From sequence record OQ703618.1: a stretch of DNA of 64,000 nt. One strand, written 5' to 3'. Numbering within the stretch: position 1 is the stretch's first letter; each line of letters opens with the position of its first letter. Shown one piece after another: positions 5,570 to 40,085 of this stretch. A program made the position numbers and the translations under genes. The notes beneath the pieces were generated by a model that was not told the origin of the DNA, searched no databases, and was given only the letters and a program-made list of their open reading frames with translations. The stretch comes from Escherichia phage GADS24.

Positions 5570-5938
5570 TTATGCAACTTTAATCCAATTGTCTAAATTT
5601 AAAACACCTTTGGCTTTCATTTTTTCTATCAGGTTATCTGCTGTAATGCGTCCATTTTGATACCATGTAACATCTTCAGAGTAACCAGTTTCTTCGTCAA
5701 CGTATGTTTCTGAACGAATTTTACCGGTAATAATAGTTTTTAATTCGTATGTGTCACCTGTGAAAAAGTTTGCTAACACAATTTTCCAAGAGAAATCATC
5801 AGAAGGACCTTCAGGGGTCATACAACCTACGAACTCAAATTGCTCTTTGTATAACATCCACTGGAATTCTTTAATTTCGATAGCTTTATAACCATCGTGG
5901 TCTTTACATTTGATGTATGAGTTCAGATTGATTTTCAT
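5570..5938 (-). CDS. hypothetical protein, 122 aa
   Basis: ATG 5936-5938 with GGAGAA RBS. Confidence 0.55.
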   Translation of the reverse strand: MKINLNSYIKCKDHDGYKAIEIKEFQWMLYKEQFEFVGCMTPEGPSDDFSWKIVLANFFTGDTYELKTIITGKIRSETYVDEETGYSEDVTWYQNGRITADNLIEKMKAKGVLNLDNWIKVA

Positions 5939-5981
5939 TTTGTTCTCCAGGTGGTTTTATTGATTAGATGGTACAAGTCTA

Positions 5982-6009
5982 TAGTAACACATCCTACAGG
6001 AGAGTAAAC
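5982..6009 (-). promoter_or_regulatory. T4-type early promoter (GTTTAC, 17 nt, TACTAT)
   Basis: Motif match upstream of ORF 5570-5938. Confidence 0.5.
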
Positions 6010-6040
6010 ATCTTTTTAAACTTTTTCTGCCCTAAACGCA

Positions 6041-6063
6041 CAAAAGGGAGACCGAAGTCTCCC
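6041..6063 (-). terminator. Intrinsic terminator, GGGAGAC-UUCG-GUCUCCC hairpin plus UUUUG
   Basis: 18-nt hairpin 6046-6063 with A-tract on plus strand (U-tract on minus transcript). Confidence 0.55.
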
Positions 6064-6068
6064 TAAAA

Positions 6069-6248
6069 TTATGCAACAACCTTTCCAAAACGAGAAGCAT
6101 CATCTCGAAGAACTGCACGTGCTCTGCGCATGATCTTCTCAACTGTTTGATTAATACGAGAGTTCGACCCACGCTTGTATCCAGCGCGTTTAGAGGTACC
6201 ATCAACTTTCTTTTCGACTGCTTTCTTTGCTTTAGCTTGTTTTGCCAT
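6069..6248 (-). CDS. small basic Lys/Arg-rich protein, 59 aa (below ORF-track cutoff)
   Basis: Hand translation MAKQAKAKKAVEKKVDGTSKRAGYKRGSNSRINQ...; ATG 6246-6248, stop 6069-6071; terminator immediately downstream. Confidence 0.45.
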   Translation of the reverse strand: MAKQAKAKKAVEKKVDGTSKRAGYKRGSNSRINQTVEKIMRRARAVLRDDASRFGKVVA

Positions 6249-6613
6249 TATAAATTCTCTTTAAATGAAAATGCAGGACTTATTGACATTGCCTGCTCAA
6301 GCCCTCAAGGGGAACATAGGTTTTGGATATTTAACGACAGGATAACCATAAACCCGTCATCATACCTTATAGCTCTTATCTGTTGCACACCGTTAGCTTA
6401 AAGGTTCCGGGTCCGATTTCTCGAGGATAAGATATATACTGATGGATATATAGGCCTTGAGGCGTACTCCCGATTGGCCATCACCTCGGGGTAGCATGCA
6501 CTTACCGCTATAAGAACCACATTCAAGAGGTACACCGTAAAATTGTCGGGGTCTTAAAACTATAATGATTCGCAAATCATTAATCAGACAATTCGACGGC
6601 TCCTCGATTTAAC

Positions 6614-6862
6614 TTACTTCAGGGTAATAACAAAATGACGAACTGCTTTGCGTGCTGCAGAAGCCAGAGGCTTAGCATATTTCAATTCATCTTTCTGGAC
6701 CAGGATATCGCGAAGATCGGCTTGTGCTGGATTCAGATGTTTGAAATACTGTAAGATTTCAAGAGCTTCGGCTTCAACATCAATAGATGCACCGTAATTG
6801 TCATGACCATTATTCCATGCATGGCGTTGCAGTTCAAGAGCGTGTTGTAATTGTTTAGTCAT
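6614..6862 (-). CDS. rIII: rIII lysis-inhibition accessory protein
   Basis: 82 aa, same length as T4 rIII; synteny adjacent to gene 31. Confidence 0.8.
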   Translation of the reverse strand: MTKQLQHALELQRHAWNNGHDNYGASIDVEAEALEILQYFKHLNPAQADLRDILVQKDELKYAKPLASAARKAVRHFVITLK

Positions 6863-6978
6863 TTTAAATTCTCAATTCGAGATAATATTTAGTAGCCACG
6901 TTCTTCTGAATTTCACCTTCTTTCGACAAGTCTCTCAGTTGTAGGCTACTGCTTAGAAGAGTGTTCTCTTCATATAGT

Positions 6979-6986
6979 TATTTATA
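6979..6986 (-). promoter_or_regulatory. Late promoter core TATAAATA (minus strand)
   Basis: Exact TATAAATA just 3' of gene 31 stop, 117 nt upstream of rIII start. Confidence 0.35.
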
Positions 6987-7319
6987 TCACTTATAAAGAC
7001 ATGGAATAGCTTTATAGTGGCATGTTACGAATTTCTGTTTAATTTCTTTAGGTTGTTTAAGTCCTAAAGCCACAAATGGATGTGGAACATTTCGAATTTG
7101 TCCAACTGGTAGTGGAGTCAAATCACCGACTTCAACAAAACCTTCAGGAACATCAGGACCTACAGAATGAACTACACATAGTTCAGGAACTTCACCTTGA
7201 ACACGTTTACCGATCACAAGTCCTGATTCTGTAACTTCTTCATCACCTGCTTGAGCGGGTTCAGAAACCAGAATGACATATTCACCAACAGCACGAATTG
7301 GGAGTTGTACTTCAGACAT
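6987..7319 (-). CDS. 31: gp31 co-chaperonin (GroES analogue)
   Basis: 110-aa translation near-identical to T4 gp31 as recalled ([29 protein letters not shown]...KAIPCLYK). Confidence 0.95.
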
Positions 7320-7376
7320 CTTATTTCCTTGTTGTTTGACGATAGATTAATAATACCATACTATTCGTAAAGCATA

Positions 7377-7673
7377 TTACATAAGAAGCAAACGTTCTAC
7401 CGGAGTACCATCAACCGAAATTACTTTATCAAGGCGGAAAGAACGCCACTGACCTAACTTGGTATCGAATGCTCGAACTGATTCACGAGGTTCATAACGA
7501 ACTTCTGTTGCCGGATTGTTATTTTCGTATTTGACTTCAAGTTCATCGCGCGAAGCAAACATAGTGCGTACCTCGCCGTTAGCTTTTTCAAATACAACAC
7601 AATGAACGCCTACAGACAGAATAGTTTTAATACGTTCACGAAGAACCATAGTTTCTTTTTCAGTTAAAATCAT
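7377..7673 (-). CDS. hypothetical protein (31.1-like), 98 aa
   Basis: ATG 7671-7673 one nt from cd stop. Confidence 0.5.
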   Translation of the reverse strand: MILTEKETMVLRERIKTILSVGVHCVVFEKANGEVRTMFASRDELEVKYENNNPATEVRYEPRESVRAFDTKLGQWRSFRLDKVISVDGTPVERLLLM

Positions 7674-7674
7674 A

Positions 7675-8256
7675 TTATTCACCACAAAAGTTTCGGATTT
7701 GTTCCCAATTCAGAGAACGAAGATTATTACGAGAGTACTGAATTACTTCAATACCGGCTTGTTTAAGAATGTCTGCCCAATTTTCAGGAGATCGGTCATA
7801 TAATTCTGCATATACAACCTTTTTAATACCTGACTGTGTAATAGCTTTAGTGCAATCAGGACATGGAGAAAGTGTCGTATACAACGTAGCACCTTCAATA
7901 GAATTACCTTTACGAGCTGCAAACAAAATTGCATTCAATTCTGCATGGATTTCGTTATTAGCAGACCATGCACTATGAGCGGCCCGATGTTCTTTAGCCA
8001 AAACAAAATTATCTACCCGTCCAAATGCTGTAGTGCCTTCTTTATGTCCAGCAACTATGACCGGGCTTGGTTTATTCTTCAACCAACCATTTTCTGATGC
8101 GTGTTCACAACAGTTAACGCCACCTGCTGGTGAGCCATTATATCCAGTAGAGATAATGCGTCCATCTTTTTCAATGACGGCACCAACTTTCCATGAACAA
8201 CATTTTGATTCTTGAGAAATCAGATATGCAATCTGAAGGTATGTGCTAGCTTTCAT
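7675..8256 (-). CDS. cd: dCMP deaminase
   Basis: 193 aa; zinc-binding deaminase motifs HAE...PCxxC (HAELNAI, PCPDCTKAI); synteny. Confidence 0.93.
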   Translation of the reverse strand: MKASTYLQIAYLISQESKCCSWKVGAVIEKDGRIISTGYNGSPAGGVNCCEHASENGWLKNKPSPVIVAGHKEGTTAFGRVDNFVLAKEHRAAHSAWSANNEIHAELNAILFAARKGNSIEGATLYTTLSPCPDCTKAITQSGIKKVVYAELYDRSPENWADILKQAGIEVIQYSRNNLRSLNWEQIRNFCGE

Positions 8257-9248
8257 TATTGAACCTTATTAATATGAGTTAACAGCTCTTTAGTTTGTTC
8301 CCAACTGATGCACGCATCGGTAACGGAAACGCCATAGGACATATTATCAGAAATTTTTTGATTTCCTTCATGTAGGAATGATTCTATCATAATTCCTTTG
8401 ACCAAATCATTAGCTGCTAAATTTTTACCAATACCAATTTGATTGCTATAATGCCCATCAGCGTTTGCATGGCTACAGTCAACCATTACATAATGATTCA
8501 GACCTACTGCCCTTGCTTTGTTAGAAGCTTCTTGAATATCAGAAGAATGATAGTTCGGGCCGTTGGTCCCGCCACGCAATACGATATGCGTATTCTGATT
8601 ACCTTCAGCTTCAACAATGCCTACAGTACCATCGACGTCCATACCCATATACCGATGAGGCCAGGCGGCACTATACATCGCGTCTGTAGCTACTTTAATA
8701 GAACCATTGGTTGCGTTCTTGAAGCCTACGCACATCGGTAGACCTGAAGCAATTTCACGATGTGTCTGACTTTCAGTCGTACGGGCGCCAATAGCAACCC
8801 ATGAGAAAATACCAGAAAGATACTTAATCGTGAATGGGTCTAATACTTCAGTTGCTAATGGAAGTCCCATACGTAGAAGTTTACGACACAATGTTCGTGC
8901 AACTATAAGACCGTGGTTCATATCAAAACTTCCGTCAAGATATGGATCATTTACAAGACCTTTCCAACCTACGGTAGTTCGAGGCTTTTCAAAATAAACG
9001 CGCATCACTAACAGAACATTAGGAAGACGAGTTTGAAGTTCAGCCAGACGTTTGCCGTATTCAACAGCAGCAATAGGGTCATGAATTGAACAAGGACCTA
9101 CAACAATAAGTTTGCGTGGGTCTTCACCGTTCATAATCGAATTAACTTGTTCGCGATGAGAAGCCACTTGTGATGCGTAAGCTTCCGACAAAGGAATAAT
9201 CTCAGCCAGTTCTTTTGGAGAAATAAGTTTTCCGACGACAGGTAACAT
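8256..9248 (-). CDS. 3-deoxy-D-arabino-heptulosonate-7-phosphate (DAHP) synthase, class I (AroG/AroF/AroH-like)
   Basis: 330 aa with hallmark motifs shared with E. coli AroG: VVGPCSIHDP, VMRVYFEKPRTTVGWKGL, GARTTESQTHRE, VGFKN.T.G.IKVA, SHAN, ESFLHEGNQ, TDACI.WE; ATG 9246-9248 with AAGGA RBS; stop overlaps cd start. Confidence 0.9.
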   Translation of the reverse strand: MLPVVGKLISPKELAEIIPLSEAYASQVASHREQVNSIMNGEDPRKLIVVGPCSIHDPIAAVEYGKRLAELQTRLPNVLLVMRVYFEKPRTTVGWKGLVNDPYLDGSFDMNHGLIVARTLCRKLLRMGLPLATEVLDPFTIKYLSGIFSWVAIGARTTESQTHREIASGLPMCVGFKNATNGSIKVATDAMYSAAWPHRYMGMDVDGTVGIVEAEGNQNTHIVLRGGTNGPNYHSSDIQEASNKARAVGLNHYVMVDCSHANADGHYSNQIGIGKNLAANDLVKGIMIESFLHEGNQKISDNMSYGVSVTDACISWEQTKELLTHINKVQ

Positions 9249-38768: not shown

Positions 38769-38772
38769 ATTT

Positions 38773-38913
38773 TCACCATATTAATGAACGAATAGCCATT
38801 ATAACATCTGAAATGAAAAGCACTACTTGGATTAGTCCAAACATCACACCATAGTACAGAACCGTAAGCAACAACAAGAGCCCGAAGGCTCCTGCTAAGA
38901 TTTTCTTAATCAT
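38773..38913 (-). CDS. small hydrophobic membrane protein, 46 aa (below ORF-track cutoff)
   Basis: Hand translation MIKKILAGAFGLLLLLTVLYYGVMFGLIQVVLFISDVIMAIRSLIW; ATG 38911-38913 overlaps upstream stop (TAATG). Confidence 0.4.
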   Translation of the reverse strand: MIKKILAGAFGLLLLLTVLYYGVMFGLIQVVLFISDVIMAIRSLIW

Positions 38914-39059
38914 TACTCGCCTTTTAATACGTTAAGAAGAGCTAAGACCGCTAAGGTACCTTGTGACACCGCCTGTTGAAATACTGTTGTTTCGCCTGTA
39001 ACTAAAGTGTTAACGAATAAAAACGACCAACACAGCAATGCAATAATCCATGCTACCAT
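38913..39059 (-). CDS. small hydrophobic membrane protein, 48 aa (below ORF-track cutoff)
   Basis: Hand translation MVAWIIALLCWSFLFVNTLVTGETTVFQQAVSQGTLAVLALLNVLKGE; ATG 39057-39059. Confidence 0.4.
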   Translation of the reverse strand: MVAWIIALLCWSFLFVNTLVTGETTVFQQAVSQGTLAVLALLNVLKGE

Positions 39060-39111
39060 TTTAATTACCTCAAAAATAAATTAAAGGCCCAACTTAATAG
39101 GCCCGTATAAA

Positions 39112-39835: not shown

Positions 39836-39895
39836 TTTGTGTTCCTCGTGTTTTGATAGGACTACTATACCATAATCCTACCTTGATGTAAACAA

Positions 39896-40006
39896 TTAAA
39901 TTACATTAAAGTATGTTAAAGCCAACCATGTTCCAGTGAACGAACATGCGATGTAAAAACCCGTATCACAAATTGTTCTTAGTACAATAATAAGTGCATT
40001 TTTCAT
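39896..40006 (-). CDS. small hydrophobic peptide, 36 aa (below ORF-track cutoff)
   Basis: Hand translation MKNALIIVLRTICDTGFYIACSFTGTWLALTYFNVI; ATG 40004-40006 with GAGGT RBS. Confidence 0.3.
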   Translation of the reverse strand: MKNALIIVLRTICDTGFYIACSFTGTWLALTYFNVI

Positions 40007-40085
40007 AAGTACCTCAACACAATTGAAAATATTATACAAATCATTGGGATACTAAGCAACCATATTCCGATCCACATTTTAGAGC

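Follow-up and report, generated by a model that had tools for sequence, protein, structure and literature searches.

The window analysed here is a 64,000-nucleotide stretch of Escherichia phage GADS24 (sequence record OQ703618.1), and the element in question lies in the gap between the genes rIII and 30.9. Comparative analysis identifies positions 6364–6516 on the minus strand as encoding an independently folding RNA domain of about 153 nt (the core), not previously described. The original prediction for this gap had offered several options, namely a structured non-coding RNA, a decayed gene, a mobile-element remnant or a regulatory or replication element; the first of these was supported by covariation in 26 of 51 base pairs among 28 homologues, by an asymmetry of G.U over A.C pairs and by the lack of a conserved reading frame. 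The core appears to be a new RNA family with no detectable relative, restricted to T4-like phages of Enterobacterales. We propose, with a probability of roughly 55%, that the core works via its fold, binding a specific putative partner in an accessory function, and that it is possibly trimmed to a stable fragment.

The structure set consisted of 28 distinct homologues (alignments A3 and A4). RNAalifold returned 39 pairs, 17 with compensatory changes; a closing stem (P0) was added to this model by inspecting the flanks and a kissing interaction by inspecting the loops. In the extended model 96.4% of the pair cells are paired and 26 of the 51 pairs are changed on both sides; the covariance analysis across T4-like relatives proposed at the outset favours the fold. 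The real value was not reached by any of 500 column shuffles on any of five measures. Slid controls, with partners shifted by 1–3 columns, gave 29–43% paired cells and 5–10 pairs changed on both sides. The paired cells include 62 G.U and 10 A.C combinations, an excess in keeping with a minus-strand transcript but with neither the opposite strand nor duplex DNA. A generic test for conserved structured RNA was thus positive, with compensatory changes beyond the controls and strand asymmetry. Single-sequence minimum free energy (MFE) folding of the window copy recovers the same helices, and a covariance model (R1) built from alignment A4 has a single match in the window, at 181 bits (E 1.5e-35). 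The core coincides with a local GC maximum (47%).

The positions of the helices are given in Table 1. P0 leads into a perfect four-way junction (P0/P1/P3/P4) with zero unpaired linker, and P4 opens into a three-way subdomain (P4/P5/P6). The arms of P0 form an inverted repeat, complementary at 8/8 positions in the window, and 7/8 pairs are changed on both sides among the homologues (columns 9/155, for example, read G-C, A-U and U-A). The sequence of P0 differs by lineage with complementarity kept, from CUUAUAGC/GCUAUAAG in the window to UAAAC/GUUUA in Klebsiella phages and UAUAAUC/GAUUGUA in Cronus. P1, predicted both by RNAalifold and by single-sequence MFE folding, is 100% paired and nearly invariant (C-G 26, U.G 2), and covariation is uninformative for it; the P1–P2 arm holds a conserved internal loop, AAGUGCAU/CUCAAG. 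Seven of the 12 pairs of P2 are changed on both sides (98.5% paired), as are three of the seven in P3 (99.5%), three of the seven in P4 (99.5%; an inverted repeat in the window) and three of the four in P5 (100%). The P5 loop is of the GNRA type (GAAA or GUAA) in 23/28 sequences and UAAA or UAAU in 5/28, as counted on the printed alignment, and reads GNRA only on the minus strand. P6 (five pairs, 100% paired) has one pair changed on both sides, from A-U to U-A in phage Cronus; its conserved 15-nt loop, GAACCUUUAAGCUAA (6407–6393), is accompanied by an invariant joiner, GCAACA (6386–6381), on the 3′ side of the helix.

The five pairs of the kissing interaction are 100% paired, with G-C 24, A-U 2 and U-A 2 at columns 36/78 and G-C 26 and A-U 2 at columns 40/74; the variants are UAUGG/CCAUA in Muldoon-type phages and AAUGA/UCAUU in Cronus and EcS1. 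An apical P2 pair proposed by RNAalifold (columns 35–40) was replaced by this interaction, which accounts better for the variation. Three candidate pseudoknots, judged by eye on the alignments, were dropped because none showed covariation: P2-loop GGCC with junction GGCC, 5′ UGCAUG with 3′ UGUGCA, and junction CCUCAAGG with a downstream CCUUGAGG hairpin, the last complementary in the window but not in AmPh_EK29 or Roth21.

The palindromic segments and the direct repeat that had first drawn attention to the gap are all present, and the fold changes how they are read. The GATATATA repeat is formally direct (6431–6438/6445–6452), but since (AT)n can pair with itself, its copies serve as the opposite arms of hairpin P3. 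The P1 5′ arm, the conserved internal loop and the P2 5′ arm all fall within GGTAGCATGCACTTACC, whose GGTA/TACC ends match each other in GADS24 alone, most homologues having GGCA, and are not the conserved pairing. CCGGGTCCG straddles the P5/P6 boundary.

No open frame crosses the core: a stop codon occurs in every frame on both strands in 28/28 sequences, and no conserved protein-coding open reading frame (ORF) was found in related phages. Of the 28 sequences, only 6 keep intact a 41-aa ORF that is annotated in Klebsiella phages, 20 interrupt it and 2 more lack its start codon, which leaves the proposal of a decayed gene unsupported; the window copy of this frame has TGA at codon 7, and the core alignment contains indels of 1, 2 and 7 nt. 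Hypothetical proteins of 36–60 aa are annotated over the core in several Klebsiella and E. coli phage records; over the core and its flanks they lie, for example, at 1504–1629 and 1637–1753 (−) in locus L002 and at 1033–1143 and 1148–1330 (−) in L004. These annotations look like artefacts, since the frame tested (41 aa, from Roth21) is broken in most homologues.

A search against Rfam 15, comprising 4227 models that include riboswitches, ribozymes, tRNA-like RNAs, small RNAs and group I introns, gave no match in the 64-kb window at gathering thresholds, and the Rfam check suggested with the original prediction thus found no family for the gap. At E values up to 10 the core was clear within 5900–7000 except for a chance mir-1275 match, which touches its 3′ edge only (17 bits versus a threshold of 71), and five divergent core copies were without a match. 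ARAGORN found no tRNA or transfer-messenger RNA gene in the window, and on reading the printed alignment no conserved T-loop sequence was seen. A promoter and terminator scan of 5900–7400 placed no site inside the gap, with counts at or below shuffle expectation, and there is no sigma-70-like site inside 6249–6613. A ToxI-like tandem array, with repeats of about 34–36 nt beside a toxin gene, is absent: the gap has only two-copy direct repeats of 7–10 nt, the core is present once per genome among the matches listed, and its neighbours are rIII and 30.9. A search of the window for the complement of the P6 loop, as a sign of trans targets, showed no excess of matches. No description was found in the literature, although the 10,000 unnamed candidates of a 2023 viral structured-RNA screen may include the core. 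It has probably escaped description because the classic laboratory phages T2, T4, T6 and RB69 lack it.

The core occurs in about 408 phage records, once per record among the matches listed, and wherever its neighbours were examined (about 40 loci) they are rIII and 30.9, with the core in the gap between them and on the same strand. Carriers include Tequatrovirus, Moonvirus, Karamvirus, Marfavirus, Muldoonvirus, Roskildevirus and others, and the central block is 80–97% identical in phages of Klebsiella, Citrobacter, Enterobacter, Serratia, Erwinia and Edwardsiella and in many E. coli phages. Identity to the window is 70–97% for the core versus 67–83% for rIII and 64–79% for 30.9; 69 alignment columns (∼45% of positions), many of them unpaired, show no variation. 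A conserved-pattern scan of 185,579 bacterial and archaeal species genomes found no core, and 5,426 E. coli genomes, searched for a host origin, gave no match. The same core was all that pattern scans of IMG/VR and metagenomes recovered, on contigs of T4-like phages or on short fragments. A looser pattern of the 5′ domain yielded 38 new loci, none scored by the model save the missing half of a known copy. Copies were identified by R1 in 15/40 rIII-anchored IMG/VR loci, and the rIII-anchored loci of more distant phages lacked the core.

The core is an optional cassette. By model R1 it is missing from T4, T2, T6, RB69 and ATK47. Comparison with the syntenic T4 region, which the original prediction had recommended, showed the ends of the gap to be common to T4 and the central core to be missing there; the refuting case named there, absence of the region, applies in T4, T2, T6 and RB69 to the core, and this absence marks the core as accessory rather than meaningless. 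Locus L046 has the core and L045 does not, although their aligned 30.9 N-termini are identical and the leader downstream is nearly so; an unrelated segment of about 45 nt occupies the core position in L045. The same contrast separates JS98-type from RB69-type phages, and PG7 from a relative. In L045 and L055, core-less IMG/VR relatives of VR26 and JS98/RB69, the ∼45-nt cassette GUACUAUCACGCGUCAGAAAAAGGUUAUCUGUCUAAGUCGUGGUU stands exactly at the RNA site (∼1870–1920, +), which indicates replacement rather than simple deletion. The idea of a mobile-element remnant fits in part at best: presence and absence are cassette-like, but every copy examined is located in the same gap, once per genome.

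We infer that the core is transcribed within the rIII–30.9 message. It starts 2–18 nt past the rIII stop codon in Merlin, Moon, PG7, EnC07 and EcS1, leaving no room for a promoter of its own, and in core-less ATK47 the only annotated terminators of the stretch (ARNold) lie directly downstream of 30.9. The window hairpin at 6046–6063 would be the counterpart of these terminators. T4 transcriptomes carry no information on the core, which T4 lacks.

In the proposed mechanism, the core would be made as part of the rIII–30.9 transcript and would act at the RNA level through its three-dimensional fold, its putative partner being a protein or a small ligand. Like the orphan stable RNAs of T4, the core may survive as a stable fragment, and it would not act as a gene, a plain stabilizing hairpin or a DNA site. 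Several points weigh against this interpretation. Transcription, RNA ends and stability are deduced from strand and context only, and the partner is only putative. The single-sequence folding energy is not significant (z = −1.0 for the whole gap and −1.3 for the core), so that the case for more than chance is a comparative one. The 28 homologues are phylogenetically related and mostly at least 80% identical, so that only a few independent events stand behind several helices; P1 and most of P6, which never vary, are supported by prediction and not by covariation. A purely cis role is also compatible with the data, the core being upstream of 30.9 in every copy examined. A bolder version, in which the core founds a new functional class of RNA in T-even-type phages (a ligand-sensing aptamer, a ribozyme, or a decoy or sponge neutralizing a host factor such as an immunity protein), is possible but doubtful; were it true, the patchy presence among close relatives would reflect an arms race.

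The main rival is a riboswitch-like cis leader of 30.9, which would sense a metabolite or protein and whose weak P0 would signal to hairpins controlling read-through or a sequestered ribosome-binding site. We regard it as rather unlikely. The position is as expected of such a leader, upstream of 30.9 and on the same strand in every copy examined, and the build is aptamer-like, with an AU-rich-closed junction, side-by-side arms joined by a loop–loop contact and many invariant unpaired bases. The apparent 30.9 Shine–Dalgarno sequence lies within a hairpin in all lineages, and P0 could compete with a second hairpin, module C, in JS98, Merlin, PG7 and EcS1, where the P0 3′ arm and the base of that hairpin overlap. 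Against this, the core and the 30.9 start are 36 to 152 nt apart, and the modules in this interval differ between lineages. Module C is downstream of the core in the window but upstream of it in Klebsiella and Muldoon phages; because of this, and of the variable spacing, there is no conserved expression platform, and no terminator-like site follows the core. Relatives with and without the core are nearly identical in the 30.9 protein, its leader and the Shine–Dalgarno hairpin, and T4, T2, T6 and RB69 express the same gene arrangement without the core.

An element of mRNA processing or stability, either a 3′-untranslated shield of the rIII mRNA against 3′ exonucleases or a site of endonucleolytic separation of rIII from 30.9, is improbable. 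The short distance from the rIII stop in several genera would suit it, as would the dispensability of the core in many phages and the make-up of the gap, a string of hairpins (modules A, C and others) typical of T4 intercistronic regions. An exonuclease block, however, needs only a stable hairpin, which a four-way junction, a kissing loop and ∼45% invariant bases exceed, and the core is more conserved than the flanking genes that it would serve. A new catalytic RNA, self-cleaving or other, by which the polycistronic transcript would be cut, has, in our assessment, little probability: the compact junction, conserved internal loops and tertiary contact recall the four-way-junction hairpin and twister-sister ribozymes, but no Rfam 15 ribozyme matched six divergent copies at E values up to 10, and no conserved candidate scissile site can be named.

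A role at the DNA level, as a recombination cassette, mobile-element remnant, origin or protein-binding site with incidental inverted repeats, is very improbable. Presence, absence and replacement at sharp boundaries do resemble the cassette shuffling in hyperplastic regions of T4-like genomes, as set out in PMC4122927 and PMC2839356, and ATK47 has an annotated 'ori type 2 repeat' adjoining 30.9. The G.U to A.C ratio given above is, however, unexpected under duplex-DNA or strand-neutral constraint, loop–loop covariation and GNRA loops are features of RNA, and there is one copy per genome among the matches listed, at the same locus in every copy examined. The promoter consensus of PeSL cassettes does not fit either; the PeSL idea was rejected on this ground for both module C and the core. 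That the core encodes a small protein, as the Klebsiella and E. coli phage annotations of 36–60 aa would have it, is effectively refuted by the absence of an open frame in any of the 28 sequences, by the interrupted or startless 41-aa frame and by the frame-shifting indels tolerated.

Table 1. Features of the rIII–30.9 gap and its neighbourhood in the window.
Feature	Positions	Strand	Details
cd	7675–8256	−	
31.1 homologue	7377–7685	−	Pfam PF10902 (WYL_2), E 2e-9
gp31	6987–7319	−	
rIII, lysis-inhibition accessory protein	6614–6862	−	PHROG 1457, E 8e-42; upstream neighbour of gap
Module A, long imperfect hairpin	6527–6605	−	Directly 3′ of rIII stop; inner UAAUGAUU-UGCG-AAUCAUUA hairpin
Core structured RNA domain, ∼153 nt	6364–6516	−	RNA 5′ end at 6516
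P0, closing stem, AU-rich	6366–6514	−	5′ arm 6514–6507 CUUAUAGC with 3′ arm 6373–6366 GCUAUAAG
P1	6453–6506	−	GGU 6506–6504 with GCC 6455–6453; encloses internal loop and P2
P2, long hairpin	6462–6495	−	5′ arm 6495–6484, 3′ arm 6477–6462; 1x1 mismatch, bulged C
Kissing interaction	6441–6482	−	P2 loop GAUGG 6482–6478 with P3 loop CCAUC 6445–6441
P3, short AU hairpin	6433–6452	−	UAUAUAU / GUAUAUA
P4	6374–6432	−	UCUUAUC 6432–6426 with GAUAAGA 6380–6374; closes three-way subdomain
P5, hairpin	6413–6424	−	UCGA-GAAA-UCGG
P6	6387–6412	−	ACCCG 6412–6408 with CGG(U)GU 6392–6387
Module C, hairpin	6332–6362	−	UGAUGACGGG-UUUAUGGUUAU-CCUGUCGUUA
Small hairpin CCCCUUGAGGG, then CUUG	6302–6312	−	Nearly invariant block; core-plus phages and T4
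Hairpin GCAGG...CCUGC, then AUUUUCAUUU	6273–6296	−	T4-type leader only; common to T4
Hairpin AUUUUC-AUUUAAA-GAGAAU	6254–6272	−	Encloses purine-rich AAAGAGAA upstream of 30.9 ATG (6248–6246)
30.9, 59-aa basic protein	6069–6248	−	PHROG 1427; downstream neighbour of gap
Hairpin GGGAGAC-UUCG-GUCUCCC	6046–6063	−	After 30.9
30.8, then 30.7	After 30.9	−	

The window belongs to a T4-like (Tequatrovirus-type) phage, and its region here is 99.7% identical to phage Ec3-ASingh and 95–98% identical to NHEP29, phiC120 and others. All genes of the locus are on the minus strand (cd, the 31.1 homologue, gp31, rIII, 30.9, 30.8 and 30.7). The limits originally given for the gap, 6249–6613, coincide exactly with the rIII–30.9 intergenic interval, and its description as poor in ORFs is accurate: no other internal stretch of the 64-kb window that lacks ATG ORFs of at least 50 aa reaches its length of 365 bp. 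Its ORFs are all short (one ATG ORF of 26 aa on the plus strand and TTG or GTG ORFs of 27–60 aa on the minus strand), and an 84-aa TTG ORF (+, 6147–6401) overlaps its low end. The next-largest stretches free of long ORFs are 38769–39111 (343 bp) and 39836–40085 (250 bp); these hold ORFs of 46–48 aa, two of them hydrophobic, and so are not truly non-coding. gp30.9, checked as a recognizable RNA-binding protein, has no Pfam or PDB match.

Two further neighbours were noted. The WYL_2 domain of the gp31.1 homologue is an Sm-like SH3 β-barrel, often nucleic-acid- or ligand-binding; its gene is three genes upstream of the RNA, and T4 also has it. Directly downstream of cd is the gene (8256–9248, −) for a 330-aa protein of the DAHP synthase I family (Pfam PF00793, E 5e-75), the enzyme with which aromatic amino-acid synthesis begins. 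In T4, 31.2 follows cd, and in T6, T2 and RB69 there are small cd.x genes on the other side of cd, DAHP synthase being absent from the stretches listed.

The gap is a mosaic, T4 aligning to its two ends only (57% coverage); 153 of its 365 bp form the complex conserved RNA, and the remainder consists of simple hairpins common to T4. Module A, which has inverted repeats and identical MFE and centroid structures (z = −2.2), is present in T4 and absent from other genera. Module C is kept in T4 and in every group aligned, and its inner stem covaries; it has conserved flanks, GUAUGAUG ... CGUUAAAUA, and a loop, GUUNUNGGUUAUC (window; T4 L001, Klebsiella L002, Cronus L007, EcS1 L022), and may stand on its own as a small conserved RNA or as a motif for protein binding. 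The GCAGG...CCUGC hairpin was not scored as a terminator by the scan. AAAGAGAA is taken to be the Shine–Dalgarno sequence of 30.9. Analogous leader hairpins of other sequence were found by eye (UUUCUCC..GGAAGA in Klebsiella phages and Merlin, CACCUC..GAGGAU in Cronus), and the hairpin changes together with the apparent Shine–Dalgarno sequence (GAGAA, GGAAGA, GAGGAU), which suggests that masking of 30.9 translation on the long transcript is conserved. In the Klebsiella phages, Moonvirus, Karamvirus, Marfavirus and Roskildevirus, a segment of about 60 nt, enclosed in a GGGAGC/GUGCUCCC helix, replaces the T4-type leader of 30.9 (L002 ∼1418–1500, −, and L003, L008, L009 and L007; not in the window). 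Three spaced CGRAAGAAS repeats seen in it by eye suggest a series of binding sites or a further structured leader.

No virulent phages have been studied more intensively than the T4-like ones, and still the RNA seems to have escaped notice. Complexity at the level of the core is usual for riboswitches, ribozymes and dedicated protein-binding RNAs and not for ordinary intergenic hairpins. If it is an RNA-based device for host takeover or counter-defence, a sensor or a catalyst, it would add an RNA layer to a region seen as one of small orphan proteins, and spurious 'hypothetical protein' entries of Klebsiella and E. coli phages would be put right as well. Near-isogenic phage pairs with and without the core, together with culturable hosts (E. 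coli, Klebsiella, Citrobacter and Enterobacter), make its function directly testable.

The core can be compared with four kinds of known element. PeSL are simple stem-loop plus early promoter cassettes, with the T4-group consensus TTTACW-N17-TAYWAT (PMC4122927); they are described as conserved intergenic cassettes found where insertions, deletions and replacements have their boundaries in the variable parts of T4-like genomes (PMC2839356, PMC4122927). The core is likewise a conserved intergenic cassette at replacement boundaries of T4-like genomes. Unlike PeSL, it has 153 nt, seven covarying helices and no promoter-like site inside the gap, and the test for PeSL failed. T4 rnaC and rnaD (species 1 and 2), annotated in the T4 record only as 'small, stable RNA', are, like the core, small structured non-coding RNAs (119–139 nt) in a polycistronic early region. 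They were rejected as relatives for want of resemblance: there is no sequence similarity by eye, rnaC has a tRNA-like T-arm by reading, and both lie about 60 kb away in the tRNA cluster of T4, which lacks the core.

HK022 put and phi29 pRNA are structured phage RNAs of 70–170 nt that act by their fold on a protein machine. put consists of two simple stem-loops and acts in cis in antitermination; pRNA has a multi-way junction and loop–loop pairing, but its kissing is intermolecular and it serves a type of packaging motor that T4-like phages lack. The core has no sequence or model similarity to either. Purine and lysine riboswitch aptamers are built on junctions with L2–L3 loop–loop contacts. 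The core differs from such aptamers in being four-way with an added three-way subdomain, in matching no Rfam riboswitch, in having no conserved expression platform and in that the downstream gene and leader are unchanged in relatives without it. Like these junction riboswitch aptamers, the core has a weakly closed multi-helix junction, parallel arms held by a covarying kissing loop, many invariant unpaired bases and a position upstream of a same-strand gene.

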